From contig CAYHBA010000002.1 of assembly GCA_964354755.1 (NCBI GenBank), forward strand, positions 92,002 through 156,001: a stretch of DNA of 64,000 bases, given 5' to 3'. The notes under the pieces are model-generated. The model had not been told where the DNA came from. It was given only the letters and a program-made list of their open reading frames with translations, and did no database searches. Origin of the DNA: an uncultured Thermoplasmata archaeon. GTDB taxonomy: Archaea > Thermoplasmatota > Thermoplasmata > SG8-5. A program made the position numbers and the translations under genes. This document shows positions 4,145 through 31,451 of this stretch, one piece after another (the stretch's first letter is position 1; each line of letters begins with the position of its first letter).

Positions 4145-4175
4145 ATTAATAAATTGCCCAGGCAATACTGTATAT

Positions 4176-9259: not shown

Positions 9260-9330
9260 GCCGAGGTAACATAGTGGCTATGTGGCGGACTGCAGATCCG
9301 CATACGGGTGTTCAAATCTCCCCCTCGGCT
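9260..9330 (+). tRNA. tRNA-Cys (anticodon GCA)
   Basis: Manual fold gives acceptor GCCGAGG/CCTCGGC, D-arm ACAT/ATGT, anticodon stem GCGGA/TCCGC with loop CTGCAGA, and T-arm GGGTG-TTCAAAT-CTCCC with one U-U mismatch. CCA is not encoded. Confidence 0.7.
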
Positions 9331-15844: not shown

Positions 15845-16053
15845 GCGAGGATAGCCAAGCCCGGCCAATTATGCTTACAGGCATCATTGCTTTGCAATGC
15901 AAGCTGAGTTCACAGGCCACGGCGATAGGAGCGGCCACACCTGGCCGCGACTAAGCCGATGACCGGATATCGGAGCCTGCAGGCATAGGTCATCGGCGAT
16001 AGACTCAAGATCTATTCCTTAGTGGTTCATCGGTTCGAATCCGATTCCTCGCA
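15845..16053 (+). tRNA. tRNA-Leu (anticodon CAA) with an intron of about 126 nt in the D-loop. Exons are 15845-15868 and 15995-16053.
   Basis: Acceptor GCGAGGA/TCCTCGC pairs 7 of 7. The Leu-type D-arm GCC-AAGCCCGGCCAA-[intron]-GGC is present. Anticodon arm is ATAGA-CTCAAGA-TCTAT, with a variable arm and T-arm ATCGG-TTCGAAT-CCGAT. The intron contains a 10-bp hairpin GCCGATGACC/GGTCATCGGC next to the 3' junction. Confidence 0.6.
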
Positions 16054-16469: not shown

Positions 16470-16572
16470 GGGCCGGTGGTCTAGTGGTTCTGGTGCCGGG
16501 TTTTCCGACATCAACACAAATGACGTCGCCCTTACAAGGCGAAGATCGGCGGTTCAATTCCGCCTCGGCCCA
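16470..16572 (+). tRNA. tRNA-Val (anticodon UAC) with a 30-nt intron in the D-loop (16490-16519)
   Basis: Acceptor is GGGCCGG/TCGGCCC with a G-U at 7-66. D-arm is GTC-TAGTGGTT-[intron]-AT-GAC. Anticodon arm is TCGCC-CTTACAA-GGCGA, followed by a 5-nt variable loop and T-arm GGCGG-TTCAATT-CCGCC. Confidence 0.65.
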
Positions 16573-16845
16573 CTCTTTTTTCATTTTGTTATCATACGTG
16601 GGCCTCAGCGGAATTCACAACTTATGGTGGGATATGTTGGGGTCTTAAGTTGTGAACACAGCCGAATTCCTCTGGTGTCATATGCTGAATACGGAATTCG
16701 GCTTGGCCGCGAAATATGCTTCGATATAGCCAGGGTCTTAATTCGCGGCTTCCGCCCCGGCCCCTGTGCAACTTCCGATTGCGGCCTTTGTGATGCTAGA
16801 CTTCGGGATTTTGGTGGGGGGATAAGCCGGGGGGAAGTCGCTTTA

Positions 16846-18951
16846 TCATACGATTTTTAACTTCATCCTCCTCTTCCTCGCGCAGATTGGACACCAATGT
16901 TTCTGTTTTACACTCGAAGGTGTAGCTTTCCATATGTGGCCATCTGCACATTGCCAATCTAACTTTATATGGTTTCCAAAGTATTTTTCTGAAAGGCAAC
17001 GACCGCCATGTTCAGCAGCCATCTCCCGCATCTTTTCAATAGTAAGTCTCTTCGGTCCCATTGTCTTTCTCATGCATGTAGTACACCAATGACCCGCTCT
17101 GATGTTTTGAGGTGTAGCCCACCATTCATGGCCAAATTCACAGCGCCAGTGTAGGTTAGTGCTATTATTGACATACACATCAGATAGACACTCACCTTTC
17201 CTTTCCCTGGCAATTTCTCGCATCATCTCGATTGTCAGTTTCTTTGCATTGTCTGAGCACTGCCTGCACCAATTACCCTTTTTTACACTGCTTGGATTCA
17301 TCGAGAACTTGTGCCCAATTTTACACTGCCATTTCAATTTGACATTTGCTCCAAGATACCTATCGGAAAGGCATTCTCCTCCCTGTTCTTTAGCTAATTC
17401 TCTCATTTCTTCAATGGAACCAACATTGTGTCCACAATATGGGCACCAACTACCACGAATTACATTGCTCGGTGTTGCCTTCCAGGTATGTCCTTTAGAA
17501 CATTGCCATTCTAATTTGCGATATATGCCCCGATATTCTTTGGATAGACAAAGACCGCCATGTTTCCTTGCTACTTCCATCATCTCTTCAATTGTTCTGT
17601 TTCGACCATAGCATTTCGGGCACCACGAGCCCATCTGTTTGATAGAATAAGGGATTGCTTCCCAAACATGTCCTTTACTACATCTCCATTTTAATTTCTT
17701 ATCTGTTGAATAATAAATATCAGATAAGCACTCCCCCCCTCGTTCTTTAGCCAGTTGCTGCATTTCTTCCAATCGTTTCCTGGAAAACACATCGAAATCC
17801 AGGTAATTAATTGTTGAAAGGTCTACATTGATGCTAATTTCTCTTTTTTTACATTCTTGAGCAATATATTGGCCCATCTCCTTGTGCGAAACGTCGTAAG
17901 GCACTTCAATCAGAGTGACATGGTTCCTGGCACATATTGACCGTTTCCATTGATCTCGTTGTATCAATTCATGTAATTTATCCTCCCCATATATCGGACG
18001 TGTGTGTTGAGCCCCCTGATATTCAAATGCCAGCTTCAGGTCTTTGTTAAACCCATCCAATTCCATTTTTTGCGATGTTTCTAAATTTACTAACCACGAA
18101 GGCCGTACCTTCTTGAATTTCACTCCGAAAATAGCCTCAAACCAGCCTCGGCAGATATTTTCACTGAGTGTGTTTCTACATATTGGGCACCAATTACCTT
18201 TATTAATTTCGGCCCAAGGGGCTTCCCAATCATGACCCTCGCAGCATTTCCATTTTAATTTTGTATGTGCGTTTTCATATTCATCAGATAGGCATTCGCC
18301 ACCTCTTTTTTTCGCTTCATTCTTCATTTGTTCAAGTGTATGTCTCATATGGCCAGAGCATTGAAGACACCATCGGCCAGTTCTAATGTCTCTCGGAGTA
18401 GCCCACCAAGTATGGCCTTTTTTGCATTGCCATTGTAATTTTGAAGCATTCCCCCCATAGTCAACCGAAAGGCATTTACCACCTTTCGCTGCAGCATTTA
18501 TTTTCAGGTCTTCAATGGTTAGCCGTTTCTGTCCAGCACATTCTGGACACCAATGTCCATTTATTATTGCTCCTAGGCTTGTTTTCCAAATATGTCCTTC
18601 TTTACATTGCCATTTCAAATGCGTTTTACTATTAACATATTTTTCAGAGAGGCATTTACCCCCTTTATTGTGTGCTATCTCTTGCATATCCTTGATTGTT
18701 TTACAAAAATGTCCTGCACACTCTGGGCACCATGTTCCCATTCTTATATGATTAGGAACTGCCTTCCAGACATGTCCTTTGGCACATTGCCATGTTAGAT
18801 GGGTTTGACTATTGATATATGCCTCTGAGAGACATTTGCCTCCCCGTTCCTTTGCAAGGTTCTGCATATCTTCTATTGTGTACCTTATCCGAGCCATTAT
18901 ATCACTCAATTGCTCGTCTTCGACCCCTTTCATAATATTCTTTACATTCAC
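16846..18951 (-). CDS. Protein with nine tandem zinc-ribbon repeats (4 + 5) flanking a central PD-(D/E)xK / DUF559-like nuclease domain
   Basis: The repeat unit is about 58 aa, for example LTIEDM.A.ERGGKCLS..Y.....L.WQC..GH.W.A.P...R.G.WCP.C.G. The central segment MELDGFNKDLKLAFEYQGAQH resembles the catalytic core of restriction-endonuclease-fold (Vsr/DUF559) proteins. Low GC. Confidence 0.65.
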   Translation of the reverse strand: MNVKNIMKGVEDEQLSDIMARIRYTIEDMQNLAKERGGKCLSEAYINSQTHLTWQCAKGHVWKAVPNHIRMGTWCPECAGHFCKTIKDMQEIAHNKGGKCLSEKYVNSKTHLKWQCKEGHIWKTSLGAIINGHWCPECAGQKRLTIEDLKINAAAKGGKCLSVDYGGNASKLQWQCKKGHTWWATPRDIRTGRWCLQCSGHMRHTLEQMKNEAKKRGGECLSDEYENAHTKLKWKCCEGHDWEAPWAEINKGNWCPICRNTLSENICRGWFEAIFGVKFKKVRPSWLVNLETSQKMELDGFNKDLKLAFEYQGAQHTRPIYGEDKLHELIQRDQWKRSICARNHVTLIEVPYDVSHKEMGQYIAQECKKREISINVDLSTINYLDFDVFSRKRLEEMQQLAKERGGECLSDIYYSTDKKLKWRCSKGHVWEAIPYSIKQMGSWCPKCYGRNRTIEEMMEVARKHGGLCLSKEYRGIYRKLEWQCSKGHTWKATPSNVIRGSWCPYCGHNVGSIEEMRELAKEQGGECLSDRYLGANVKLKWQCKIGHKFSMNPSSVKKGNWCRQCSDNAKKLTIEMMREIARERKGECLSDVYVNNSTNLHWRCEFGHEWWATPQNIRAGHWCTTCMRKTMGPKRLTIEKMREMAAEHGGRCLSEKYFGNHIKLDWQCADGHIWKATPSSVKQKHWCPICARKRRMKLKIV

Positions 18952-19156
18952 TCAACGTATAATCATTTAAAGACTTCGGTATATTGGCCGCAAACGTATC
19001 TAATATAAAAAATAATAAAACTCTTTTTACCTTTGGGGTTAATATTCCCTTTATATCTTCATCATTTCCTGTCCAATTTTGTTTTACAGCATATGTTACT
19101 AGTTCTTTCATTAGTCTTTGAAATTCAGCTTCCCGAAACATGCCATTCAACCTCAC
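18902..19156 (-). CDS. Hypothetical 84-aa protein; overlaps the start of the zinc-ribbon gene by 50 nt
   Basis: ORF only, no recognisable domain. Possibly co-transcribed with the gene at 16846. Confidence 0.25.
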   Translation of the reverse strand: MRLNGMFREAEFQRLMKELVTYAVKQNWTGNDEDIKGILTPKVKRVLLFFILDTFAANIPKSLNDYTLSECKEYYERGRRRAIE

Positions 19157-19209
19157 ACTTAATATCCATAATGATTTCAGAATGTATAATGGTTTACCGA
19201 AAGACTAAT

Positions 19210-19233
19210 AAAGAGAAAAAGAGGGACGATTTC
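19210..19233 (-). terminator. Shared T-rich terminator-like motif
   Basis: Minus-sense reads gaaatcgtccctctttttctcttt just 3' of the gene ending at 19269. Variants of the same motif occur at 23272-23297 and 26101-26123. Confidence 0.45.
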
Positions 19234-19268
19234 CTGAACAATACACATTTTTAATTGAGAATACAGCA

Positions 19269-19814
19269 TTATAGAACTATTCTTACCCAACATGAACCAA
19301 AACACACTGGGCATCTGCCAGTGCCATTGCAATATGAGCAAGGTTTTTTCAGAATACTACCAATTTTACCAGTCCCGTGGCACTGCGAACACATTCCTGA
19401 AGGCCTACCTGAAACCAATCCATATGGGCCTATTGGATCACAAGCAATGCAAGTGGCAACTCTCTGCCTCTGATGCTCTCTGCATAAATTACGACCTCCA
19501 TCATTAACGATTCTGCCCATGTTTGCCGCACTCTGGAATAGACCCTGTTCTCGCGAATTTAGTTTACTGCAAAAATAACATTCCTGTTTCTCGCAAATTT
19601 CACACTTGAATAAACGATTACCTTCTGTCAGAGTGTTACCACAATTTGGACATAATGGTAGACTGCTAACTGCCCCAGTGTGATGAACCTGCATACTATT
19701 TTCTTCTATCAGAACTTTACCTCCGCAATGACTGCAATATCCAATTTTTAAAGTATCTGGGAATTGAAGATCCGCACCACAATTTGGACATCTTGCAGGA
19801 ATTAAGTTCACCAT
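19269..19814 (-). CDS. Cys-rich zinc-finger protein with several CxxC/CxxCxGxG-type ribbons; start trimmed to the Met at 19814
   Basis: Contains CPNCGADL, CSHCGG, CPNCGNT, CEICEKQECYFC, CSQCHGTGK and CSYCNGTGRCPVCFGSC. Confidence 0.5.
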   Translation of the reverse strand: MVNLIPARCPNCGADLQFPDTLKIGYCSHCGGKVLIEENSMQVHHTGAVSSLPLCPNCGNTLTEGNRLFKCEICEKQECYFCSKLNSREQGLFQSAANMGRIVNDGGRNLCREHQRQRVATCIACDPIGPYGLVSGRPSGMCSQCHGTGKIGSILKKPCSYCNGTGRCPVCFGSCWVRIVL

Positions 19815-19835
19815 AACATTCCCTTTGTTAATGTT

Positions 19836-19860
19836 AAAGCCCGGTAATAAGGCTTTCGTC
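19836..19860 (-). promoter_or_regulatory. Shared promoter-like motif: a TTATTA TATA-like element sits inside the inverted repeat AAAGCC...GGCTTT
   Basis: Minus-sense reads gacgaaagccttattaccgggcttt about 38 nt upstream of the ATG at 19814. The same motif occurs upstream of at least four other island genes. Confidence 0.5.
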
Positions 19861-19917
19861 AGGAGGCAGGGATCCTCCGGCAGGGCATCACGCCGGCCAG
19901 GGGCTTCAGGATACATT

Positions 19918-20355
19918 CTACCATATGTAATGTTTAACATTATTTCGACAATTAATGCAATATCTTGTATCTGGTGCAAGATTGGTTTTGCATCGGTGAC
20001 ATTCAAAATAACCTTTTTCTCTAATCATTTCTATTCGATTTAAATTATATAATCCCTCTAAGAATAATAAGATTGAACATAAAATAAGGATTATCCACGT
20101 ATATACACGAGTATGTATTAGTTCATTCCATCCTTTAATAAGGGGTATAACAATTATTATCATCCATACAATGATTGGAGAAAAAATTGAGGTGTAAGTA
20201 TACCATTTTAATTTTCGAGGTATTGCGTTGTTTTGAAGAATGTATGTTTTTTGAACATGCCCGCATTTGTCACATTTTGATGTCGAAATGGGATTTGCAC
20301 AGTAACCGCACCAGTTATGATGGAAATCACTTCTTTGAGGAATAATTGTTGACAT
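19918..20355 (-). CDS. Zinc-ribbon membrane protein, hypothetical
   Basis: N-terminal C-x2-C...C-x2-C ribbon. C-terminal C-x2-C...C-x2-C ribbon. Two or three TM helices lie between them. Confidence 0.4.
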   Translation of the reverse strand: MSTIIPQRSDFHHNWCGYCANPISTSKCDKCGHVQKTYILQNNAIPRKLKWYTYTSIFSPIIVWMIIIVIPLIKGWNELIHTRVYTWIILILCSILLFLEGLYNLNRIEMIREKGYFECHRCKTNLAPDTRYCINCRNNVKHYIW

Positions 20356-20370
20356 GCGCCTTTCGCCCCT

Positions 20371-20406
20371 CAAGTGAATGCGAAAGCCCGGTAATAAGGC
20401 TTTCGT
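20371..20406 (-). promoter_or_regulatory. Shared promoter-like motif copy upstream of the gene starting at 20355
   Basis: Minus-sense reads acgaaagccttattaccgggctttcgcattcacttg, followed by gaggggcgaaaggcgc and then ATG. Confidence 0.5.
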
Positions 20407-20450
20407 AAGCCAGCCCAGTGGTAATTTCGCCTTGGTCTTTGATCTTCGAC

Positions 20451-20972
20451 TTAATCCAGTGTGAAGGTTGTAGGTTCATCCATCCGAAGTAAATCCTCCC
20501 ATGAATATTCCCAAATGACTACCGAATAAGTCGTATGCTGACCAAGGTTAGAAACAACGATGAAATCATTTTTATTAACCTCATTCTCCTGGAAATTCAT
20601 GTCTGTGTACTCTGCTGATGCGCCTCCTGTTGCACTCATCGTAACAGTTGATGCGCCCGGTGGGGTCTGTAAATATATTTCCACAACATCAGATTGATTC
20701 GAAGTATTGGTGATAATCAATTTTATATCACATGGCATTGGATTATAACTGGGTGGTGGGTGTCCAGCTAATATCTCCATAAAAATGATTTTCACACTCG
20801 TTGAACTTTGAACATCGAATTGTAGTTTGGCATGAGGGGATGTGTCTTTGGGTGGTCCGAATGGACCTATACCCAATGCCATTGCGAGAGTTAGCGGAAT
20901 TAAAACTGCCCCGGCTACTACAATGAAAATAATTTCACCTTTGTAATTCTCCCAATTCCTTTTGGATTTCAT
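20451..20972 (-). CDS. Archaeal type IV pilin-like protein (class III signal peptide); paralog of the protein at 10964-11506
   Basis: KG then EIIFIVVAGAVLIPLTLAMAL. The shared C-terminal domain is PPGASTVTMSATGGASAEYTDMNF. Confidence 0.65.
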   Translation of the reverse strand: MKSKRNWENYKGEIIFIVVAGAVLIPLTLAMALGIGPFGPPKDTSPHAKLQFDVQSSTSVKIIFMEILAGHPPPSYNPMPCDIKLIITNTSNQSDVVEIYLQTPPGASTVTMSATGGASAEYTDMNFQENEVNKNDFIVVSNLGQHTTYSVVIWEYSWEDLLRMDEPTTFTLD

Positions 20973-21028
20973 TGCATATGAATTGATTTGAATCTATATA
21001 TAGTTATTATTGACATGTCAATAATGAT

Positions 21029-21055
21029 CCTGTAACAAGGCTTTCGTTTGTTACC
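21029..21055 (-). promoter_or_regulatory. Shared promoter-like motif variant upstream of the pilin-like gene
   Basis: cctgtaacaaggctttcgtttgttacc lies about 60 nt upstream of the start at 20972. Confidence 0.35.
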
Positions 21056-21111
21056 AATCCACAGTCCAAACAGCATCCACTGGGACATGAATCCAAAATA
21101 TCCGAGTATTT

Positions 21112-21199
21112 TTCTTTTAAATTTTCTCCGCTGGCTCGGGCTCTAAAGAAAAATATTCAGCAAAGAAGAAACTCGCCACTCGCCTGCTCGAAAATTCAT
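21112..21199 (-). terminator. T-rich terminator-like element (repeat family 2, copy 2) 3' of the surface-protein gene
   Basis: About 80% identical over 90 nt to the element at 3126-3218. Minus-sense is T-rich. Confidence 0.45.
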
Positions 21200-23215
21200 T
21201 TACCAATTAATTGTCCATATCGTATCCGCAACCACGTGTACCCAGTACCCTTCGCCCGGCTTCATGATGTATGTCGGGCCGGCCTCGGATATTAGGTATG
21301 GTGAGGCAGGGTCGAAGACCTCCACCCGATTCGCCCCTGTACCCCAGAGGGCGTTGGCTACTGTGGTATTATTGTTCAAGGTGGGGAAGCTGACCAGGTT
21401 CCAACCCGCGTAAAGAATGATGCTGGTGGATTGCGGTTCCGCCCCGAAAACTGTCAAGTTGCAGGCCACCGTGGCGTGTAGCCATAAACCCATCGTGTTG
21501 TCGATATAGGTGAGGTCGTTGGCTGTGCCTCCTATTCGGTATGACTTCCAAGGATCCATTTTATCTGTTGGGTCGCACCATTTCACGACATCCCATTTTC
21601 CAGAAATGGAGGACAGTACATTCTCTATTGAGGTACTGGTCATTTCGAAAGGCACAGAGACGAGGTTCCAACCAGCTATAAGTTCGATGGTGCAGACCTG
21701 TGGCAAGGGTTGCCACCGGAACAACGGGTAAGTAATACCCTCCCTCATCCACCAGATGTTTTCGAAGTCCCAGCTTACGTTAGTAAATGTGCTCTGGGTT
21801 TTCATCACGACCGTTGTTTCTCCGGTAGCGTTGCCCGCGGTGCTGTTTTGCCCGCTGGTTTCGACGTCCCAGAAGTTGCCAGTCATCTCATAGTTCCCGC
21901 CTGTGAATATGTCTCCGACAAAGCCTTTGTTCGTTGGATTTGAACCACCATAATAAATCACCTGGCCCGTGGAATAACAGTTGATGATCTTGCCTTGATA
22001 ATTTCTCGCGGCAAACCCACCGAAATACTCATTTGTCCCAGATGAACGTGTCACTGTTCCAGTGGCGTATGAATTTCTAATAGTTCCTAGATAATTCTGA
22101 CTCACTAGTCCGCCAACATACCATACACTTCCACTTACGTTTCCAGTAGCATACGATTTATTAACCGTTCCCCTATTCTGTCCTATTAAACCACCAACAT
22201 TGGATTCTCCAGTTGTGGCTCCAGTGGCATAACAAGCCCTCACTGAGCCCATATTTTCTCCTATTAAGCCACCTATATTATTGAAAGAACCAGTCACTGT
22301 TCCAATGGCGAATGAGTCAATTACAGCGCACCCCCCTAATTCGTTGTAGCCCACGAGTCCTCCCACAATAGAACCACCAATAACATTTCCCATGGCATGT
22401 GAGTTTAAAACCAGGTCTCGGTTTACTCCCACGAGCCCGCCGACACTACCACCGGTACCGCTCACATTTACAATGGCATATGAGTTGTTCACCGTGTCAT
22501 AGTTCGCTCCTATAAGCCCACCGATTCGATGTTTTCCATTCACGGTGCCTGTAGCATGTGAGTTGGCCACAATACCATAGCTGTAACCCACAAGCCCGCC
22601 AATATAATAACTACCAGTTCCACTAACGGTACCTATGGCATATGAATTTGTTATCGTACCCTGATAGTTTTGACCTACGAGCCCGCCAACATACTCGTAT
22701 CCACTCACGGTTCCAGTGCAGTATGAGTTGGTCACTGTATCACAGTTAAATCCCACCAGGCCGCCAACATTGGATCTTCCAGTGATATTGACTTCAATGA
22801 GGCCAACGTTCTTTACGAAACCCCCACTATCAATATATCCGAGGAGTCCTTGATAATTCGTACCCGTTCGGTTGATGTGCAGTCCAGTGATGGTGAAGTT
22901 CTGGCCGTCAAGACTACCGGTAAACCGATTTGGATTTGTTCCAACCGCCACGAAACCTGCGCCACTGTTCCAGTTTATAGTATCGTGCGCGTCAATGTCA
23001 TTCCCCAATGCATAATGTGCCGTTAAGTTCAAACTCATATTTTGCAGTTCCCACACATTCTCAATTATATACGGGTCCTCGACCGTTCCGGAACCCCCAG
23101 CTAAAGCGGTTACTGGTACATCTGAACTCACAACCTCATCCACACATATTCCCACAAACATGCCGCTGAGAAGCATCAGGGCAACGATATAAATTAAGAT
23201 TGACTTCTTCCACAT
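21200..23215 (-). CDS. Secreted surface protein with GLUG-motif beta-helix repeats (VGGLVG.N.G.I.NSYATG) and a duplicated C-terminal beta domain
   Basis: Signal peptide MWKKSILIYIVALMLLSG. More than 12 GGLVG/GGLIG repeats. The C-terminal GWNLVS.P...EAGPTYIMKPGEGYWVHV domain occurs twice. Confidence 0.6.
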   Translation of the reverse strand: MWKKSILIYIVALMLLSGMFVGICVDEVVSSDVPVTALAGGSGTVEDPYIIENVWELQNMSLNLTAHYALGNDIDAHDTINWNSGAGFVAVGTNPNRFTGSLDGQNFTITGLHINRTGTNYQGLLGYIDSGGFVKNVGLIEVNITGRSNVGGLVGFNCDTVTNSYCTGTVSGYEYVGGLVGQNYQGTITNSYAIGTVSGTGSYYIGGLVGYSYGIVANSHATGTVNGKHRIGGLIGANYDTVNNSYAIVNVSGTGGSVGGLVGVNRDLVLNSHAMGNVIGGSIVGGLVGYNELGGCAVIDSFAIGTVTGSFNNIGGLIGENMGSVRACYATGATTGESNVGGLIGQNRGTVNKSYATGNVSGSVWYVGGLVSQNYLGTIRNSYATGTVTRSSGTNEYFGGFAARNYQGKIINCYSTGQVIYYGGSNPTNKGFVGDIFTGGNYEMTGNFWDVETSGQNSTAGNATGETTVVMKTQSTFTNVSWDFENIWWMREGITYPLFRWQPLPQVCTIELIAGWNLVSVPFEMTSTSIENVLSSISGKWDVVKWCDPTDKMDPWKSYRIGGTANDLTYIDNTMGLWLHATVACNLTVFGAEPQSTSIILYAGWNLVSFPTLNNNTTVANALWGTGANRVEVFDPASPYLISEAGPTYIMKPGEGYWVHVVADTIWTINW

Positions 23216-23387
23216 CGTGGATAATAGGAACGTTCTGCTAAATTAACCTTTCCTATGTGATTTATAGTTCATAAAAGAGAAAAAGATGGCCGGTTTCCCC
23301 GCATTCCGAGATTTTAATTCACGTATGAACTAACCTTTAGCCAGCAGAGTCAGATTCAATTCCGCCTTTAATGGACGAATCCAGATA

Positions 23388-25733
23388 CTACCAATCCACA
23401 GTCCATATTGTATCCGTTGGGACATGTACCCAGTACCCTTCGCCCGGCTTCATGATGTATGTCGGGCCGGCCTCCTTGATGTAAGGCGAAACAGAGTCGA
23501 ACGCCTCCACCCTATCCGCTCCCGTGCCCGAGAGAGCCTCTGCGACTGTCATTTCCGAATTCCGGGCCGGGTATCCGACCATGTTCCATCCTGTGTGCAG
23601 AGATATGCTTGTGGATGCGGGCATAATTCCCTCGCCTGCGGTCAGCACCCCGTCCCCGCCGTTGTCGGTGATGTGGAGCCAGATGCCCATGGTATTGTCG
23701 ATCTCCGGCATGTCGTTTGACGATGCCTGCCCTTTCTTATTGAATGATTTCCAGGGGTCCGCAGCATCCTGGGTGTCGAACCACATCGCCCGGTCCCAGG
23801 TCGTGCCGCCGTCTCCATACAATACATCGTTGAACACGGCAGTAATTCTTGTATGGACAGTCAATGGTACGGAAACGAAGGTCCAATAGCCGGTGCCGTC
23901 TCTTGACCGGTTGCTATCTGTATTCACGTCGAAAGTCTTCCAGTTGAACGGCCCTGCTTCCGGCGCAGTGCCGTTGGCAGGAATGCCGACATCATCGGCT
24001 CCGCCCTTCGCGTTCGCGATCCAGTAGAATTTACTCGGCTTTGGGCAGGGATTGGATTCGGGGGTCCAGTCGAACGAGCCATCCACACTTGCATCTGTCC
24101 CGATACAGTTCCAGTTGTCTCCGTGGTTCGTAGAATAAAACAGGTCGATTTCTGTCGGGGTTTCTGTCCAGTTATAGGTGATTGTAATGATTGGGTCGTG
24201 GCCGGCGCCCTGGGGGCCGGTGGCGGTGGCTGTTGAATTTGAATAAACCGTGACGTTTAAAGTATCAATTGAATACAAACCAGTTGTACTTGTAACATTT
24301 AAAGTCACAGTATAGACCCCTATAGATTCATATTTATGAGTTGGAGTAGAACCTATTGCGTCAATATCATTCGTTGGATTACCATCTTGATTAGTATCAA
24401 TATTAGCATTGAAATCCCAACTATAACTAAGTACTTCTGCATTTTTTGCATTATCCCATTGCCAGAGTAGATTTGAACCACCTGCTGTGGTGAACACGTA
24501 TAAAGTTCCATTTGAAGTTGCGCCAGCGTAATAATTTCCATCAAAAGAGCATGAGATATGATTGACAATTCCATTAGTATAAAAAATAGATTCTGGTGTT
24601 CCATTTGCTGGCGTGAATTGATATATTCCTCCATCTTGATTACCGCCAAAGATGTATTGACCATCAGTAGCCATATCTAATGACATACATGCCATACTGG
24701 TCACATGGGTCCAAATTGGAGAAGAACTTGAATTACTGAAAAGTCGAAACCCGTGAGAGGTAGAGGCTCCCCTAGTCTTATACTCTGCAGTGGCAATATA
24801 TTGACCATTATCTGCTGTAACCATCCCGATATGTTTCCCCAAAGATTCTGCAACCCATATACGATTTCCATTGTTATTAAATAACTGTGTATGTTGTAAA
24901 TCGCCTTGTCCCGCTGCAATTTTATTACCATAATAATCTAAAGAAATAGTATAAATTGGACAAAAATAATCAGAATTTTCAGGGAGTATTTTAAAAATGA
25001 AACCTTCTGAAATACCATAATACCGAATTTCATACCAGAATGAGCCTGCGGCAAAGTGAGTACCGTCACCCGAAAATCGAACACTCAATACGGACTGAGG
25101 GAAATCAAAAATATTTATTGGTGATCCTGAATTTGTTTCAAAGAGATAAACTTTACCTACTTTTTCCATTTGAGCTGAAATAGAGAGAAATGTTCCTAGA
25201 GCAATATAATTTCCATCACGAGTCATATCGAAGGCTCTCCGACTTGTTCCATATATGGGATAATTGGTTTGATATGTCCATATCGGTGTACTTTGATTGG
25301 TATTAAAAAAGGAAACATAACCTCTCGATTCCCAAGTATTTGATGGGTCATCATTTTGTGCGGTTGCAAGGTATGTGCCATTTTCAGAAAGAACAACAGC
25401 TACAACTGTTTTTTCAGTGTTAAATGTCCAAAGAGGCTCACTGTTGTTAAGATGAAATAAAGTAATATTTGTTCCCCATCCAATAACAATATAATTACCA
25501 TCCCCAGATATATCTACTACATTAATCGCTTGTCTGTAATTTGGATCATAAGATCCAGTTCCATTGAACTGAACGATTTCATTTACATCTACAAATTGAT
25601 CTGGACCAGCATCAGCTATTGGTGGCAATAAATTATTTATTATATTTTTATCTATGGTTGAAGAAATAACAGTGGGGCTGATGAGAAGAATAACAATTAC
25701 TATTGGTAAGAAAAATGTTCTCATACTTTTCAC
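23388..25733 (-). CDS. Secreted surface protein with beta-propeller repeats, a PKD domain and a C-terminal domain shared with the protein at 21200-23215
   Basis: Signal peptide is present. Propeller blades are YIATA- and YFAAG-type. The PKD-like segment reads TPTHKYESIGVYTVTLNVTSTTG. The last roughly 45 aa are nearly identical to the neighbour at 21200, with a 50-nt identical stretch in the DNA. Confidence 0.6.
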   Translation of the reverse strand: MKSMRTFFLPIVIVILLISPTVISSTIDKNIINNLLPPIADAGPDQFVDVNEIVQFNGTGSYDPNYRQAINVVDISGDGNYIVIGWGTNITLFHLNNSEPLWTFNTEKTVVAVVLSENGTYLATAQNDDPSNTWESRGYVSFFNTNQSTPIWTYQTNYPIYGTSRRAFDMTRDGNYIALGTFLSISAQMEKVGKVYLFETNSGSPINIFDFPQSVLSVRFSGDGTHFAAGSFWYEIRYYGISEGFIFKILPENSDYFCPIYTISLDYYGNKIAAGQGDLQHTQLFNNNGNRIWVAESLGKHIGMVTADNGQYIATAEYKTRGASTSHGFRLFSNSSSSPIWTHVTSMACMSLDMATDGQYIFGGNQDGGIYQFTPANGTPESIFYTNGIVNHISCSFDGNYYAGATSNGTLYVFTTAGGSNLLWQWDNAKNAEVLSYSWDFNANIDTNQDGNPTNDIDAIGSTPTHKYESIGVYTVTLNVTSTTGLYSIDTLNVTVYSNSTATATGPQGAGHDPIITITYNWTETPTEIDLFYSTNHGDNWNCIGTDASVDGSFDWTPESNPCPKPSKFYWIANAKGGADDVGIPANGTAPEAGPFNWKTFDVNTDSNRSRDGTGYWTFVSVPLTVHTRITAVFNDVLYGDGGTTWDRAMWFDTQDAADPWKSFNKKGQASSNDMPEIDNTMGIWLHITDNGGDGVLTAGEGIMPASTSISLHTGWNMVGYPARNSEMTVAEALSGTGADRVEAFDSVSPYIKEAGPTYIMKPGEGYWVHVPTDTIWTVDW

Positions 25734-26049
25734 TTCACCTATAATATGAATGATTATGCATCCTTATAATGTTTTCGTGTAAGCTTACTAAAATTAGATA
25801 ATAAATGGTCATTTTTAGACATTTTAATATGCTGGCACCTGACCACCATTTAGTAAAAATACAAGTTCTTCTCCTATCTGTAATGTAGTAAGTGAACTTC
25901 TGTTTCCAATTAAACGAAATTCTAATCCCCCACAACCTAATCTATTTCTAAACGACTTTAAAATCTTTTCTATTTACTTACGATGACCGCCAAACACTTT
26001 GTTTTTTATGCACATTAATCGGGCATACAGCCCTAGCCAGTAGTCGCTT

Positions 26050-26091
26050 GCCCCAAGTGAATGCGAAAACTCAGTATTAAGGGTTTCGTCG
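26050..26091 (-). promoter_or_regulatory. Shared promoter-like motif variant, about 320 nt upstream of the start at 25733 across an AT-rich leader
   Basis: ccccaagtgaatgcgaaaactcagtattaagggtttcgtcg is related to the motif at 20371-20406. Confidence 0.35.
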
Positions 26092-26142
26092 ATAAGAAGA
26101 AAGAGAAAAAGGGGGACGATTTCGTCGCCTTCCATTTCGCCC

Positions 26143-26673
26143 CTAGTACTTCCTAAAATCCAGGAACGTCATCCCCTTCCTGGCCCTCTCCCTCTCCTCC
26201 TTCAGATGCTGCTGCAATCCGACCTTCATCACCCGTTCGTGGTGCTTCAGAACCACCGGGTACCTGCCGCGCTGGTATTCCGTCCTCTTGCAGGTCGGGA
26301 ACGTCTCGCACAGAAGGCAGCTCTTCAGCTTCCGCGCTTTCTTGCATTTCATGACCTCGCACCACGGCTCCTTGATGTTCTGGCATCCGGGGCACTTCAT
26401 CTTGGAGAGCCACACAAGCCCTTTGTCCATGTCCCCGAAGTCGAAGTCCACCGAATCCTGGGCCCACAGGCAGTTGCCTTTGGTTGTGCGGGAGAGCTCT
26501 GTGGCCAGTTCGGCCACCCTTCCGTTACCGGTGGGGCACATCTCGCAGAACACGCCGCAGACACCGTATGTATATTCTTGTTTAGGGGTTTTCTTCATGG
26601 CAATCGCTCTCCGCAGTGCTGGCAGAAATCTCTCGCGCATTTGAGGTATCTGCCTTGCCTGGATAGGACCCAT
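26143..26673 (-). CDS. Cys-rich protein, DUF3795-like, possible metal or Fe-S binding
   Basis: Contains CGVFCEMCP, CPGCQ, CEVMKC and CLLCETFPTC. The start could be the internal Met at 26598. Confidence 0.4.
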   Translation of the reverse strand: MGPIQARQIPQMRERFLPALRRAIAMKKTPKQEYTYGVCGVFCEMCPTGNGRVAELATELSRTTKGNCLWAQDSVDFDFGDMDKGLVWLSKMKCPGCQNIKEPWCEVMKCKKARKLKSCLLCETFPTCKRTEYQRGRYPVVLKHHERVMKVGLQQHLKEERERARKGMTFLDFRKY

Positions 26674-26777
26674 CGTAAATCAAGTTTCTTTTTCTTGGGT
26701 GTTTTTTTTGGTAATTGTTTGCCGCACCATGGACATGTATTCGAATCGCATTGCATGTCGCATTCTTCCTTCATCGC

Positions 26778-26813
26778 GTGTGAATGTTAAGTTCTCGTAA
26801 TAAGGTTTTCGTC
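26778..26813 (-). promoter_or_regulatory. Shared promoter-like motif variant upstream of the Cys-rich protein gene
   Basis: gtgtgaatgttaagttctcgtaataaggttttcgtc. Confidence 0.35.
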
Positions 26814-26974
26814 TCCCGATATCTGTTGGATGTGAATCCCTACGGCTCGCCTAGCGCCTTCACGCACTTGCCGGCCCGCGGCTTCATGCTTATCTGGGCG
26901 GCATCGGAGAGTGATTATTCGCGCCCGCTGCCCGGTGGTGTCGCCCCCCGCTGTATTTTAGGCCCAAATGGTCC

Positions 26975-29900
26975 TCAACCCAATTCACGCCTGACAATCT
27001 CGACCTTGTAACCGAGTTTGAGCTCCTCGAATGTGCGCAGGGCTTTCCCCAGCATATCCTTGGCTGCAGGAATCCCCTTTTTCTTCATGGCCCGCCCGTA
27101 CTCGAGATAGGTCTCAGCCAGCTCCAGTTTTATCTTCGCGGACGTGAGGACCGTAATCGAGGTCTTGAAATGGTCTTCCGCCTCGGGCCAATTCCCGCGC
27201 CCTGCCTCTATCATCCCCCAGAATCTGTGGGAGATGCCTTCGCCCTCCTTGACGTCCAGCTCCTTCGCCAGTTCAATGGTTTTCTTAACGAATTCCTCGG
27301 CCTCGTCGGACTTCCCCGTCTTAATCAGCAGTTCTCCTTTGGCCTGCAGGATATCGACCATCAGCCTTTTGTTGCCCATCTCCAATGTGGCCTTCTCCGC
27401 TGCCTCTATATTGGCTCTCGCCCCTTCGAAATCGCCGGTCTGGAGCTGAACAAGGGACATGTTGAGCTCCATCATCGCCTCACCAATTTTGTCCCCCAAC
27501 TTCGTAAAGATGTCGAGTGCCCTCCTGTGGAATTCCAGCGACTTTGTATGATCTCCTCGGGTATGGTAAATGACTGCCAGGTTGTTCAGCGTGCTTCCCA
27601 TGCCGCGTGGATGTCCGAGTCTTTGGAAAACTGCGTGGCACCTCTCGTAATTGTCATGAGCCCTGTCGTAATCGCTCATGGATTTGTACACGATCCCCAG
27701 GTTGTTCAGGGCGACGCCGATGGATAATGTGTCCCCCAGCTTCTCGAAGGTCTTCAGGCTGCGCTCGAACACCTCCAGAGCTTCGGCATACCGGTCCCTG
27801 TCCGCCAGGATATGCCCGATGCTGTTGAGCGCGATTCCGGTTCCCCTGAGGTAGCCGATCCGCTCGAACTCCTCCAAAGCTTTATGGAAATTCACGAGTC
27901 CGCGATCGTAATCGCCGATGTCTACGTATAGCTGCCCCATCCTGTGGAGCACATCCGCGACGTCCTTCTCGGTCCCGCTGAGTTTCTGGAATATCTCCAG
28001 AGCCCTATTCTCTTTGGATATGGCCTCTTCGTACAATCCTTTATGTTCCTGGACAGCGCCGATTGCAGACAGTATCCTGGCGAATTCTACCCCTTCCCCA
28101 GCGGCGACCAGCACCCTCGCCTTCTCAAGCTCGTCGGCCACCCTGTCGTATTCCCCTCTCGTCGCATATATGGAGGATACCTTCCTATGAACCCTGGCTA
28201 TCACTTCCGGGTCGTCGCTGAGGTCCTTGACCCTCTCAAAGGCAGTCTTCGCCTCGTCGAGCCTGCCTGTGATTTCGTAAACTTCTCCCATTTCCTCCAG
28301 CAGCCTCGCGAGCTCCGCCCCCCGTTTCCGCCCATCCATTTCCATGAGCTCAAGCGCGTAGTTGCTGTACCGCAGGGTTTCCTTGTTCGCATATTGGGCC
28401 TTTGCAAGCTCGATTGCCCTCCTGAGGTTCGGCAAGGCCTTGTTCGCATCCCTGGCCATGTAGAAATGGTATCCGGCTTCGGCGACAACCTCGTCTGATG
28501 CGCCGTAGAGGTCCGTGATAGAATCACCCACCATCCCGTGGTACTCCCTTCTCAGCTCTCCGGGCAGGCCGCTGTAAAGCACTTCCCGTATCTTCACATG
28601 GCTGAAGGCGTAATTCCTCTCCATGGAGACAATAAGTCCGTGAGACCTCTCTATCTCGCTGAGGTTCTTCAGCAGCTCGATCTTTTTCACCTCAGCCACT
28701 TTACTCAAAACATCCGACGTGAACACGTCGCCGATGACCGAAGCCGGCTCCAGGATGAGCATCTGGTCTTTCGGTAGCCTCGCGAGCCTCCTGGATATCA
28801 CATCGTGGATTTTCACGGGGAGGTCGATGGTGTCCGGCCTTTTTGTTAGGCTCCAGGCGCCGTCCTTGTGGACCAGCGCCCCCTCCCCTTTCAATAAATT
28901 GATCACTTCGACTGCGAAGAGAGGGTTCCCCTGCGTTTCCCTCCAAAGGAAATCCACGAACTCGTCTCTGCCATCTACTTTGCCCAGGGTCGCGCCGACC
29001 AGCCCGGTCACAGCATCCCTCCCGAGGTTCCGCAGCTCGACCCGTTCCAGCAAGCCCTCGCCGCTCATGAGCTGTATGGCCTCCTTCAGCTGGTGCATCT
29101 TGCCGTCCCATGACGCCAGTATGTCCTCGGCCCTGTAGGTTGCAAGCATGAAGAGCCTTGAAGCCCTAGTGTTCCTGGAGATGTAATGCAGCAATGCCAG
29201 CGTCGACGGGTCTGCCCACTGGAGGTCGTCTATGAAGAGCAGAATCGGGCGCGCCTTGGTCTCCCTCTCCAATCCCTTCAAGACATTCTCGAAGATGCTG
29301 TTCTGCTTCGATTTGGGGTCCCCCTTCGCCCAGTCTATGCCGTCGAACCTCTCCGAGTCGAACATCTCCTTCAACGAGTCCTTGGCTCCTGTGAATTCGT
29401 CCACCAGTCCATCGAAATGCACTAACTTCCCGCCAAACCTGGCCTCCAGTTCCGCGAGAGTTTGCTGCAGATCGCCAAGCAGCGCCTCGTTCTCCCTCCC
29501 CTTGTAAATAGCCGCCAGGCTCGCGTACCGCCCGTGAATGCAGGAAATGTTGAAATCTCCGTAGCCGAGCCTGGACACATCCCCCTCGGGAAGCCTCCCC
29601 ATCTGTTTCATCGTGTCCTTGATGAACTCGTTGACTGCGGTGAGCATTCCGGAGAAAATGTCGATGTCTATGCCGCTTCCCTCCCGCTCTTGCTTCGAAA
29701 GGACGATGCCGGTCTGCGCGATGAGTAAAACTGTCTCGAGCCTCGGCGGTACCTCCAGGGTCACGAGGTGCTCCAGCCCTCCCGAAGCCAGCAGCTCCCT
29801 CATGGGCAAGAACGGCGTCATGCATCTGCTGAGGCACCATCCTCTCATCACCTTGAACCCCATCGAAGAAGCATTATGGATGCACTCCTCTGCGAGCCTT

Positions 29901-30040: not shown

Positions 30041-30156
30041 GAGGGAGACCTTTGGAAGGCAATGAGGTTGATTGTTAAAATGATTTCTAGCTTTAATTGA
30101 GGAAAACGGGTCAATCCCCGCTCTCCAAGGTTATCGCTCAGGCATGGACCGCTGGC

Positions 30157-30924: not shown

Positions 30925-31022
30925 CTGCCTCTGAAATATATATTATCCCCCTGAATTAACAGGGCCGGACAAACACCCGAACCCTTAATATTTATTATTG
31001 CGTTGCAGCTCCCGGTGATGCA

Positions 31023-31451
31023 TTGGCAACCAGAATCCAGATCGTATTCGACTGCGCCGATCCAGCGGCCCTCGCCCGGTTCTGGGCCCAAGCCCTCCAT
31101 TACAAAGTCCAGGACCCGCCAACCGGGTTCGGCTCCTGGGCCGAATACCTCGCCGCGCAGGGAGTCCCAAAAAAGGATTGGAACTGCGCCAACGCGATAG
31201 TGGACCCCCAGGGTGTGGGGCCACGCATATTCTTCCAGAGGATGCCAACTCCAAAGCCGAAAAAGAACAGGCTGCACATAGACATCAACGCCAGCACGGG
31301 AGCCGCGCCGGAAGAGCAGAGGAAGAAAGTCAGCGCAGAGGTTAAGCGACTGGTCAAACTCGGCGCCAGCAAGCAAAAGGAGTGGGAGGAGGACGGCGAG
31401 TACTGGGTCGTGATGCTGGACCCTGAAAAGAACGAGTTCTGCGTGCAGTGA
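31023..31451 (+). CDS. VOC/glyoxalase-family protein
   Basis: 142 aa with a glyoxalase-like betaalphabetabetabeta N-terminal pattern IQIVFDCADPAALARFW. Confidence 0.5.
   Translation: MATRIQIVFDCADPAALARFWAQALHYKVQDPPTGFGSWAEYLAAQGVPKKDWNCANAIVDPQGVGPRIFFQRMPTPKPKKNRLHIDINASTGAAPEEQRKKVSAEVKRLVKLGASKQKEWEEDGEYWVVMLDPEKNEFCVQ

Follow-up and report, generated by a model that had tools for sequence, protein, structure and literature searches.

A foreign, AT-rich stretch beside tRNA-Val in an uncultivated Methanomassiliicoccales archaeon, with conserved modules ahead of unrelated low-GC genes

A real stretch of ~9.3 kb of AT-rich, foreign DNA is present in an uncultivated Methanomassiliicoccales archaeon, and its unusual part is the set of conserved modules that stand ahead of unrelated low-GC genes. 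We consider it likely that positions ~16,850-26,050 of the window (the whole stretch of DNA that was analysed, 64,000 nt long) form a "replacement-type" flexible genomic island, at a hypervariable tRNA-Val/DUF3795 locus whose contents are renewed by homologous recombination. An earlier note had read the region as horizontally acquired accessory DNA, and this is supported by its composition, by its absence from the genome UBA280 and by the presence of unrelated genes at the same site in the closest relative found (L011). The further suggestion of a single virus or plasmid integrated at tRNA-Val is unsupported, given the lack of mobility genes, the mosaic composition and a junction that lies outside the tRNA.

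Composition and borders

The drop in GC that the earlier note had pointed out is borne out: the GC content of positions 16,850-26,050 is 0.421, against 0.557 in the rest of the window, and the compositional shift is real in both windowed GC and tetranucleotide usage. In 1-kb windows the mean GC outside the island is 0.558 (sd 0.027), and the island windows lie 1.1 to 8.4 sd lower, while the tetranucleotide correlation to the background goes from ~0.85 to between -0.2 and 0.18 within the island. The GC content at third codon positions (GC3) is 0.13-0.50 in the island, where whole genes range over 0.34-0.50, and 0.60-0.85 in the flanking genes; values down to 0.13-0.33 are not explicable by amino-acid composition, and thus support horizontal acquisition. 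The island is not uniform. The segment at 21.2-24.3 kb is of intermediate GC, GC3 is host-like in the 3' part of each large gene, and a low-GC patch at 24,300-26,050 includes the AT-rich leader or upstream region of the second of these genes. The island is compositionally foreign DNA and a mosaic of at least three blocks.

The conserved left flank contains two tRNA genes on the plus strand. tRNA-Leu(CAA) at 15845-16053 has a large intron (ARAGORN intron mode); its 3' half gives an Rfam tRNA match of 28.6 bits, its anticodon loop was read directly as CTCAAGA, and positions 15869-15987 are missing in a relative (L002), which fits the intron. tRNA-Val(UAC) at 16470-16572, which had been claimed earlier, is a real gene: its 30-nt D-loop intron (16490-16519) caused it to be missed by ARAGORN under default settings and by the Rfam gathering score, but once the intron is taken out ARAGORN cleanly calls a 74-nt tRNA-Val(tac), and Rfam gives a partial tRNA match.

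The variable DNA does not begin just past tRNA-Val, as had been supposed. The tRNA is followed by a conserved 3' flank (16573-16855, unstranded) which contains an inverted repeat at 16605-16665 and has the left junction at its right end. Nucleotide homology past the tRNA reaches 16711 in UBA280 (L001), 16720 in L002 and 16762 in L004, and positions 16749-16855 match L011 directly after the last gene of that genome's own island. The junction therefore lies 140-280 nt beyond tRNA-Val, with flank homology extending that far in four relatives, and low GC sets in at ~16,850. At the other end, the DUF3795 gene (26143-26640, minus strand; Pfam DUF3795, E=9.6e-9) has ordinary GC and is conserved in relatives that lack the island (84% amino-acid identity in L001, 87% in L011), which places the right border at ~26,050-26,143 rather than at 26,830; the gene belongs to the conserved core. 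The gene contents named in the earlier note are otherwise correct, and all genes of the island do lie on the minus strand, but this orientation runs on to ~32 kb and is hence not an island property.

Comparison with relatives

Relatives were located for the synteny comparison via the creatininase gene. They keep the flanks and differ in the genes at the site, which are mostly surface or membrane proteins; the content of the island, whose conservation would have argued against an accessory reading, is not conserved in related genomes. In UBA280, the closest species-representative genome, the counterpart of 16.7-26.1 kb is absent, and tRNA-Val adjoins only a small membrane protein and a pilin-like gene. 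In L004, L005 and L006 the site is taken up by different large surface proteins or different low-GC genes. Gene order is unchanged in L011, whose flanks are typically ~90% identical (300-nt windows), and its low-GC island of 6.2 kb carries other, unrelated genes: a PKD protein and five small ORFs, of which four are hydrophobic and membrane-protein-like. What the two islands have in common at the sequence level is confined to short promoter-like and terminator-like modules between genes.

Identity at the DUF3795 border is 79-84%, where 90-98% is typical, yet equally low values occur elsewhere, so the raised divergence there is only suggestive. Further points count against the replacement reading: a second genome with the same island was not found, no donor of the island genes was identified (the best non-self homologues are 41-78% identical), and the relatives are different species (~90% identity), so the turnover could have taken many steps.

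Genes of the island

The leftmost gene (16846-18933, 695 aa, GC3 0.37) encodes a predicted nuclease that resembles homing endonucleases and whose family is common among phages (535 records) and plasmids (114 records). Its predicted Vsr-like PD-(D/E)XK nuclease domain lies between groups of four and five DUF4379 treble-clef zinc ribbons. Homologues are found as solitary low-GC insertions between core genes. The domain is like that of I-Bth0305I, a Vsr-like EDxHD homing endonuclease (PMC3239194), and members of the family are annotated as homing endonucleases in phage records; the "Hef-like homing endonucleases" annotated in Campylobacter phages are a further close counterpart. Unlike these systems, the island gene is free-standing rather than within an intron or intein, and its predicted nuclease domain is flanked by nine zinc ribbons. 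It may be a selfish passenger, and might itself provoke recombination at the island edge.

Four small ORFs follow. An 84-aa ORF (18902-19156), which was taken from the ORF list and is not certain to be a gene, has no match to a recognisable family in Pfam or PHROG searches. The 181-aa Cys-rich protein (19269-19814) has several zinc ribbons and a DnaJ-like CxxCxGxG motif; its Pfam matches are weak zinc-ribbon ones only, and a close-relative scan of IMG/VR and the JGI metagenomes returned no relatives. The translation of the next gene (19918-20355) is a 145-aa membrane protein with a zinc ribbon at both ends (Pfam DZR, E=9.5e-5, below the curated cut-off). The fourth gene (20451-20972) encodes a 173-aa protein with an N-terminal hydrophobic helix and no direct Pfam match of its own, which is pilin-like by homology: its matches, at 32-37% identity (E 1e-17 to 1e-28), are orthologues of the window gene at 10964-11506 (Pfam Pilin_N, E=5.9e-10) and the pilin-like gene adjoining tRNA-Val in UBA280.

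The two large genes encode secreted proteins, a GLUG-repeat protein of 671 aa (21200-23215; Pfam Glug, E=6.6e-41) and a beta-propeller and PKD protein of 778 aa (23388-25724; Pfam beta-propeller families and PKD_4), both of which end in the same 165-aa C-terminal domain. Both are chimeras of a low-GC N-terminal module and a C-terminal domain with host-like codons. In the GLUG gene GC3 rises from 0.23-0.5 in the N-terminal to 0.6-0.72 in the C-terminal part; the beta-propeller gene is an in-frame chimera, with 0.13-0.33 over codons 1-470 and 0.55-0.78 over codons 480-778, and the C-terminal domain is missing from the best homologues (45% and 41%) of its N-terminal part. The C-terminal domain of the GLUG protein is 60% identical to its counterpart in an L005 protein from the same locus. 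The domain has 268 homologues, fused to varied N-terminal domains; the matches that carry an organism name are all from Thermoplasmata, Thermoplasmatota or an unclassified euryarchaeon, and the context is chromosomal at the loci read. The two secreted proteins probably attach through this domain.

The sequence ahead of the beta-propeller gene (25725-26050, minus strand, GC 0.30-0.43) is AT-rich and non-coding, as the earlier note said, and shows no significant fold (z = -0.63). An orphan 15-codon remnant of the C-terminal domain, FWIHVPVDAVWTVDW and then a stop, is present at 21051-21098 on the minus strand (repeat family D8) and shows past gene replacement. A copy of the promoter-like module directly follows it, and the same succession of domain end, stop codon and module recurs in a metagenome locus (L022), with 91% identity over 68 nt.

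Intergenic modules

The shared cis motifs that had been claimed for the region are of two kinds. The first is a promoter-like, palindromic module of ~40 nt with the consensus TGACGAAAGCCTTATTACCGGGCTTTCGCATTCACTTGG, found at 26051-26089 on the minus strand and, by 16-mer matches and alignment, at 26776-26812, 21032-21047, 20368-20406 and 19821-19859; the 16-mer has 5 matches in the window where 0.24 are expected by chance. Copies stand directly upstream of the 145-aa membrane-protein gene and of the 181-aa Cys-rich gene, whose start codon is 47 nt after the module start, and another stands just outside the low-GC DNA, upstream of the pair formed by a small zinc-ribbon ORF and the DUF3795 gene. 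Positions 25963-26085, which cover the first ~90 nt of the AT-rich leader and most of the module, are 77% identical to module-associated sequence in L013.

The L011 island contains two further copies, and the JGI metagenomes yielded 13 exact 21-mer matches, in related contigs; the module is absent from IMG/VR. Of these 13 metagenome copies, 11 have a called ORF, whose start codon is 47-118 nt after the module start, and the copies usually sit where GC steps down; in L016 the module precedes one low-GC ORF of 95 aa that is surrounded by ordinary chromosome. Several copies have a degenerate right palindrome arm, while CGAAA, TTATTA and a downstream CATTCAC are kept, and the first two of these resemble the archaeal BRE and TATA box.

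The second kind is a T-rich, terminator-like junction module (23272-23367, minus strand) whose core, GGAAATCGTCCCTCTTTTTCTCTTT, occurs three times in total, the other copies being at 19210-19234 and 26100-26124. The module is 84% identical over 98 nt to positions 14367-14464 of L011, where the core has four copies, each after a gene of the island (four of the six called genes). A 90-nt intergenic element (21103-21190, unstranded) is duplicated at 3126-3215 of the window (82% identity); it is present also in L003, and adjoins tRNA-Val in L011.

Alternative explanations

These modules could be read as the repeats of an integron-like cassette array built by site-specific recombination, in which a tyrosine recombinase with its gene at some other place in the genome would capture low-GC genes singly, one after another, behind the module, and the palindrome (CGAAAGCC, nine bases, GGCTTTCG) would be a recombinase target besides or instead of a promoter. 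We regard this as unlikely. Integron cassette arrays, such as the Vibrio cholerae repeats, are made of co-oriented, mostly single-gene units of unrelated function separated by a lineage-specific conserved repeat, and the island is like them in each of these respects. In the alignment the module shows 8-bp arms separated by a 9-nt spacer, which we take to resemble a tyrosine-recombinase core site, and the regular spacing ahead of unrelated ORFs, the metagenome copies at GC steps, the single-ORF case and the terminator modules of L011 fit the same scheme. In L024, a related metagenome contig, one module copy is followed ~1 kb downstream by a gene of the Phage_integrase family (E=3e-19), and for this reason site-specific recombination keeps a small probability, but the association is confined to that one locus. 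No recombinase gene, integron integrase included, was found in or adjoining the island, in the window or in L011, and the left end of the island has no module copy. The intergenic regions lack long attC-like hairpins (fold z-scores -2.3 to +1.5), and the decay of the right arm beside conserved CGAAA, TTATTA and CATTCAC is the pattern of a promoter. Integron cassettes are mostly promoterless, and the island repeats resemble a promoter and a terminator.

That one virus, plasmid or integrative element entered at tRNA-Val, with its integrase lost or outside the window, is quite improbable. tRNA adjacency is typical of integrase-mediated islands, and the island shares with tRNA-linked islands and proviruses its low GC, accessory content and position; its absence from UBA280, the nuclease family and the repeated promoter-like motifs, which some viral genomes also have, point the same way. 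Searches of Pfam, PHROGs and PADLOC returned no integrase, replication, capsid or conjugation/transfer gene, however, and the partial duplicate of the tRNA-Val 3' end proposed as an att site was not found, the best matches being 13-15 nt at chance level (E > 0.7). The conserved flank keeps the junction out of the tRNA, the segment is not one compositional unit but has host-like segments inside genes, the named matches of the anchor domain of the surface proteins are all from Thermoplasmata or a related archaeon, and a copy of the promoter module stands outside the low-GC DNA. A viral or plasmid origin draws on the phage and plasmid records of the nuclease family, but the nuclease, 181-aa Cys-rich and pilin-like proteins have no close relatives in IMG/VR.

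It is hardly credible that low-GC DNA of another organism was mis-joined here during assembly or binning. In favour of an artefact, the contig analysed, 279.8 kb long, is metagenome-assembled and unannotated, and the contigs of several relatives (L002, L003) break near the locus. Against it, composition switches inside intact reading frames whose host-like 3' parts encode a lineage-typical domain, and L011, a relative assembled independently on a contig of 633 kb, carries a low-GC island at the identical position, bordered by the same junction modules. The STAND protein, the creatininase of the flank and the GLUG protein are, moreover, each recorded both in NCBI and in an independent Logan assembly.

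Relation to known islands

Renewal as a replacement-type island has a possible parallel in the "minimal mobile elements" of Neisseria, reportedly described by Saunders and Snyder in 2002, in which different cassettes are said to lie between the same conserved flanking genes and are thought to move by DNA uptake and homologous recombination without mobility genes of their own. The present island differs from them in being archaeal, in having many genes, and in its repeated internal modules and strong compositional contrast with the host.

The passages drawn on here from a study of aquatic bacteria and archaea (Lopez-Perez, Martin-Cuadrado and Rodriguez-Valera 2014, PMC4033161) describe replacement islands as different gene clusters at the same locus, rich in exposed structures, with neither integrase nor transposase, exchanged by homologous recombination and marked by border divergence as a hallmark. 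The island studied here resembles those in its unrelated clusters at one site, its exposed structures, its lack of mobility genes and its conserved flanks, with divergence that looks raised at one border. It differs from the islands of those passages in that the comparison is between species (~90% identity) rather than strains, in the selfish-type nuclease and zinc-ribbon proteins, in the internal mosaic with in-frame chimeric genes, in the two adjoining tRNA genes, and in the conserved promoter- and terminator-like modules, of which those passages make no mention.

For the replacement-type island favoured here, DNA would enter from related lower-GC archaea and be exchanged by homologous recombination, with crossovers in the conserved flanks, the repeated intergenic modules and the conserved C-terminal domain, and each gene would be driven by its own copy of the promoter module. 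Four of the eight island ORFs (the nuclease, the two zinc-ribbon proteins and the 84-aa ORF) are not surface proteins, which counts against this explanation. The pay-off to the archaeon would be strain-specific variation of exposed structures, namely the pilin-like protein and the two secreted proteins.

Composition and limits of the island

The low-GC island is real, and the DNA that it contains was acquired horizontally. In a sliding-window profile the GC content is 42.1% between positions 16,850 and 26,050, against 55.7% in the remainder of the window, and the 1-kb windows of the island lie 1.1-8.4 standard deviations below the mean of those outside it (0.558, standard deviation 0.027). The contrast is sharper in the GC content of third codon positions (GC3), which is 0.60-0.85 in the flanking genes and 0.34-0.50 in the island genes, and the tetranucleotide correlation to the remaining window falls from about 0.85 to values between -0.2 and 0.18. 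All three measures bear out the drop in GC content described in an earlier note, and the gene contents listed there are correct. The limits that it set are revised here: low GC starts not at the end of the tRNA-Val gene but near 16,850, and the DUF3795 gene (26143-26640, minus strand), which had been counted as part of the island, belongs to the flank, because its composition is ordinary and it is conserved in relatives. At the right edge, low GC stops at 26,050, exactly at a promoter-like module. The genes of the island do all lie on the minus strand, as had been observed, but this orientation runs on to about 32 kb.

The island can be divided into three blocks: 16.85-21.0 kb, with GC3 of 0.22-0.50; 21.2-24.3 kb, with intermediate values; and 24.3-26.05 kb, with GC3 of 0.13-0.33. 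A search for a structured RNA in the AT-rich leader gave no Rfam match and a fold z-score of -0.63. The low-GC blocks of different genomes resemble one another in tetranucleotide composition (r 0.7-0.9), but this likeness, being mainly a reflection of GC content, was not taken to indicate a common donor.

The site in related genomes

The genes flanking the island encode the PolD small subunit, a creatininase-family protein, STAND ATPases, heliorhodopsin and a Ras-like GTPase. Relatives of the locus were sought by a scan of species-representative genomes with the creatininase, which yielded six loci, all in Methanomassiliicoccales/Thermoplasmata metagenome-assembled genomes, the closest being UBA280 (L001; 88% amino-acid identity). 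The 1021-aa STAND protein has a 90%-identity cluster mate that led to a still closer relative, L011, on a JGI contig of 633 kb. Gene order there is identical, and the flanks of L011 are typically about 90% identical to those of the window per 300-nt window, with a range of 69%-98%.

In the five relatives compared, the flanks and the site are kept and the gene content is different. In UBA280, which lacks the DNA corresponding to 16.7-26.1 kb as well as the STAND ATPase and heliorhodopsin genes of 26.9-31.5 kb, the left core genes are followed by a small membrane protein, and then by a pilin-like gene, an inverted tRNA-Val, tRNA-Leu and DUF3795. The site is occupied in L004 by a zinc ABC transporter and a surface protein of 1163 aa (carbohydrate-binding and Ig-like domains), in L005 by Ig/PKD proteins, HTH regulators and a 731-aa protein carrying the C-terminal domain found in the two large window proteins, and in L006 by a 540-aa low-GC protein. 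Between the same tRNA-Val and DUF3795 flanks, L011 holds a 6.2-kb island with a GC content of 0.31-0.45, encoding five small ORFs (four of them hydrophobic and resembling membrane proteins) and a PKD protein that has a membrane anchor at its C-terminus; apart from the PKD fold, no homology to the island genes of the window was found. Since the contents differ in this way among the relatives, the locus is hypervariable and repeatedly contains low-GC DNA. Conservation of the island in synteny across related genomes, which the earlier note had named as an argument against a foreign origin, is accordingly not observed in these five relatives.

Raised, mostly synonymous divergence in the shared genes at the borders, a mark of replacement islands, is at most suggested: the DUF3795 border is 79-84% identical, against a typical 90-98%, but other stretches are equally low. 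No identical island was found in an otherwise divergent genome, and the island proteins that were looked up are singletons at 90% identity in a collection of 15 billion proteins; this reflects a gap in sampling and is not counter-evidence, because the neighbouring core creatininase is also a singleton at 90%.

Other parts of the window vary as well. The genes of the 1021-aa STAND ATPase (AAA_16 and TPR) and of heliorhodopsin, at about 26,578-31,498, are missing at this position in UBA280 and present in L011, and form a further insertion or deletion of ordinary GC content. The gene of a 983-aa STAND ATPase (34,745-37,445) is 97-98% identical to its L011 counterpart, in surrounding DNA that is 76-92% identical, a pattern which suggests recent recombination between the two lineages at this gene. 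A second variable block, at 3266-8986 beside tRNA-Cys (9260-9330), contains a Ras-family GTPase gene and the gene of a 1539-aa surface protein (CARDB, DUF5915); it is present in UBA280 and UBA147 (71% and 57% amino-acid identity for the large protein) but missing in L003, L004 and L005, in which its neighbours adjoin one another, and has a GC content of 0.49-0.53 but ordinary GC3. A 90-nt intergenic element occurs at 3126-3215 and again at 21103-21190 (82% identical), as well as in two relatives, L003 (7647-7740) and L011 (20010-20098), in one of which it adjoins tRNA-Val. Its distribution points to intergenic DNA having been exchanged between these two variable loci.

The tRNA genes and the left junction

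The tRNA-Val gene (16470-16572) is genuine: its spliced sequence is called as a 74-nt tRNA-Val(UAC), and it was missed by default ARAGORN and by Rfam at the gathering score because of a 30-nt intron in the D-loop (16490-16519). Just upstream lies tRNA-Leu(CAA), at 15845-16053, with a far larger intron of about 120-135 nt. The introns of both genes are at non-standard positions, and both genes escape standard scans; the stretch 15869-15987 of the tRNA-Leu gene is absent in the related locus L002.

The left junction of the island is not in the tRNA. Nucleotide homology to relatives extends 140-190 nt beyond the end of tRNA-Val, to 16711-16762, and homology to L011 restarts at 16749-16855, immediately after the stop codon of the last L011 island gene, which places the junction 140-280 nt past the tRNA end at 16572 (homology of L001, L002, L004 and L011 to 16711-16855). 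An inverted repeat (20 nt, with a 21-nt spacer) is present at 16605-16665, just downstream of tRNA-Val, in a stretch that is also found in L001, L002 and L004. L011 has the 90-nt element in its place. Relative to the window and L011, tRNA-Val and its 3' flank are inverted with respect to tRNA-Leu in L001, L002 and L004. The variable DNA lies invariably on the 3' side of tRNA-Val, in either orientation, and the tRNA and the variable block therefore appear to have moved together.

The evidence does not fit the integration of a single virus or plasmid at the tRNA. No tyrosine or serine integrase was found among the island proteins or flanking genes (Pfam, PHROGs) or at the L011 locus. The partial duplicate of the tRNA-Val 3' end that had been proposed as an att site did not emerge above chance, the best matches being 13-15 nt long with E values of 0.7-2.5, and when the tRNA-Val region, tRNA-Leu and tRNA-Cys were compared with the entire window (blastn, 7-nt words), only chance-level matches came up. 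No genes for replication, capsid, packaging or transfer were found in the island (Pfam, PHROGs), and only its nuclease matches phage families. PADLOC reported no defence system among the island proteins. Scans for close relatives of the Cys-rich, nuclease and pilin-like proteins in IMG/VR gave no match, nor did a scan of JGI metagenomes with the Cys-rich protein. Of the acquired or integrated element envisaged in the earlier note, the horizontal acquisition stands and the single virus or plasmid integrated at a tRNA is unlikely.

Surface proteins and chimeric genes

The exposed proteins of the island are a pilin-like protein, a GLUG protein (21200..23215, minus strand) and a beta-propeller/PKD protein (23388..25724, minus strand), each with a signal peptide or an N-terminal hydrophobic helix, and exposed proteins also occupy the site in L004, L005 and L011. 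Four of the eight island ORFs are not of this type: the nuclease, two Cys-rich zinc-ribbon proteins and an 84-aa ORF without a family. The 173-aa pilin-like protein does not match Pfam Pilin_N even at E values up to 10. It is 32-37% identical to orthologues of the window gene at 10964-11506, which matches Pilin_N (E=5.9e-10), so that its membership among the pilins is indirect; its basic N-terminus and the hydrophobic helix that follows, read directly from the sequence, may belong to a class III signal peptide.

The two large genes are composite. In the beta-propeller gene, GC3 rises from about 0.2 in codons 1-470 to 0.55-0.78 in codons 480-778 with the frame intact, and the GLUG gene makes the same switch from low to host-like GC3 less sharply. 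The host-like 3' parts encode a common C-terminal domain of 165 aa, 51-59% identical between the proteins, while the closest homologues of the low-GC N-terminal module of the beta-propeller protein (45% and 41% identity) are without this domain. A profile of the C-terminal domain matches 268 proteins, in which it is joined to Ig-like, Kelch, NosD and other N-terminal domains; the named organisms among the matches are all Thermoplasmata, Thermoplasmatota or an unclassified euryarchaeon, and no Pfam assignment covers the domain region among these matches. Its structure is predicted with high confidence, with no solved structural relative. A 15-codon relic of the end of the domain is found at 21051-21098 (FWIHVPVDAVWTVDW, followed by a stop). 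The in-frame chimeras and the relic are marks of repeated gene replacement by recombination.

The zinc-ribbon nuclease

The leftmost island gene (16846..18933, minus strand) encodes a 695-aa protein in which four and five DUF4379 zinc ribbons flank a central domain with the Vsr-type PD-(D/E)XK catalytic fold. This fold makes it a candidate Vsr-like (EDxHD) homing endonuclease, the class of I-Bth0305I. Among 24 homologues the candidate catalytic residues D33, E44, H50, D67 and K70 never vary and E31 hardly does; a search of solved structures by sequence gave no match. Bacteria and archaea together have over 4000 members of this family. PHROG families annotated as endonucleases are among its matches, and it occurs in 535 phage records (some labelled "Hef-like homing endonuclease") and 114 plasmid records. 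The viral or plasmid affinity suspected earlier holds for the nuclease family; no close relatives were found in IMG/VR.

In another archaeon a homologue stands as a lone gene with GC3 of 0.32 between the TatD and FtsY genes (GC3 0.81), and the closest relative (78% amino-acid and 77% nucleotide identity) belongs to a tandem pair in a low-GC block of a metagenome contig, which is how selfish genes behave. The place of the nuclease gene at the island edge is reminiscent of phages, in which such genes are reported to lie where genetic exchange has its boundaries (PMC10055350), and by this analogy we infer that it may have a causal role in island exchange.

Intergenic modules

The shared cis motifs claimed in the earlier note are substantiated by a promoter-like module of about 40 nt (consensus TGACGAAAGCCTTATTACCGGGCTTTCGCATTCACTTGG), which has 5 copies in the window against 0.24 expected by chance, all confined to 19.8-26.8 kb and oriented with the genes. 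It contains a BRE-like CGAAA and a TATA-like TTATTA, which we take to correspond to archaeal promoter elements, and an 8-bp inverted repeat surrounds the latter; where an ORF was called, its start codon lies 47-118 nt past the beginning of the module. A second module, T-rich and terminator-like (core GGAAATCGTCCCTCTTTTTCTCTTT), lies 3' of three window genes and four L011 island genes, and these two modules are the only sequence common to the window and L011 islands.

Exact matches to the promoter module number 13 in JGI metagenomes, 10 of them on five contigs from the sample of L011, and IMG/VR contained none. The copies usually stand at a step from higher to lower GC, and the genes behind them are unrelated, with GC3 mostly of 0.21-0.36 where an ORF was called. 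The functions encoded around them include membrane proteins, a GNAT acetyltransferase, methyltransferases, a nucleotidyltransferase and a phosphoesterase beside an AAA_15 ATPase. Three copies lie directly 3' of the stop codon of a protein with the C-terminal domain, as at the relic in the window, and about 1 kb downstream of one copy is a gene for a tyrosine recombinase. We read the promoter module as a lineage-specific promoter of a flexible gene pool, for which a role in recombination is also possible. No copy was found at the left island boundary, where it was sought as a possible att site. Folding of the intergenic regions in the manner of attC sites was ruled out, the single-stranded DNA forming only a 6-9 bp stem (z -2.3 to +1.5).

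The tyrosine recombinase, at 908-2068 of L024 (JGI Ga0315274_10000290), has a C-terminal zinc ribbon and lies in low-GC DNA, and the module copy upstream of it follows a surface-protein gene; the 78-kb contig carries four module copies, is 41-45% GC in the pieces seen, and may represent either a large island or an extrachromosomal element belonging to this lineage. The phosphoesterase (calcineurin-like) and AAA_15 ATPase genes beside a module copy at 1535-3828 of L021, another metagenome locus, are in low-GC DNA and look like a defence-type nuclease and ATPase. In the window, a 53-aa ORF with two CxxC pairs forming a zinc ribbon (26595-26756, minus strand) overlaps the upstream end of the DUF3795 frame and is preceded by a degenerate promoter module; it is probably a real small gene, because L011 has it at 67% identity and preserves all four cysteines.

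Nature of the island

The island fits the definition of a replacement-type flexible island in PMC4033161, which comprises different contents with exposed structures at the same site, no integrase, and homologous recombination. The window island agrees with the islands so described in its site, its conserved flanks, its varied contents, part of which are exposed proteins, and its lack of an integrase, and its contents would be exchanged by homologous recombination. The archaeal setting is new, if unsurprising. Three features exceed the usual picture of such islands: the in-frame chimeras, which share a putative anchoring domain restricted to the lineage; the nine-ribbon nuclease with its selfish behaviour; and, most notably, the conservation of promoter-like and terminator-like modules around unrelated low-GC genes, seen in two species and at scattered loci.

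This framing of unrelated genes gives rise to another reading, to which we assign a low probability, namely that the modules constitute a hitherto undescribed cassette-capture system of this Methanomassiliicoccales lineage. Foreign low-GC genes may be taken up singly behind a standard promoter/recombination module, in one-orientation arrays at hot spots, for example the tRNA-Val site and the positions directly 3' of surface-protein genes, and may be shuffled between loci and genomes; such a system would do what integrons do, but at other sites and perhaps with another recombinase. An IntI-type integrase beside the array was found neither among ten genes at 3.3-15.4 and 30.2-33.9 kb (Pfam) nor in precomputed Pfam assignments for the L011 homologues of 27-41 kb.

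Read as a replacement-type flexible island, the window presents a well-delimited archaeal hypervariable surface-gene locus with unusually readable traces of its making: the in-frame junctions of foreign N-terminal modules with a resident, putatively anchoring domain, the 15-codon relic of a replaced gene, and short promoter- and terminator-like modules that have outlasted the exchange of the genes between them. The 165-aa domain is a candidate cell-surface attachment module whose named carriers are all Thermoplasmata or related archaea. Should the modules turn out not to be promoters alone, or should the domain and the nuclease be characterised, the nine-ribbon nuclease would bring an archaeal chromosomal setting to a family otherwise familiar mostly from annotated phages and plasmids, and the modules would reveal the way in which AT-rich foreign genes are domesticated and expressed in an uncultivated lineage of archaea.
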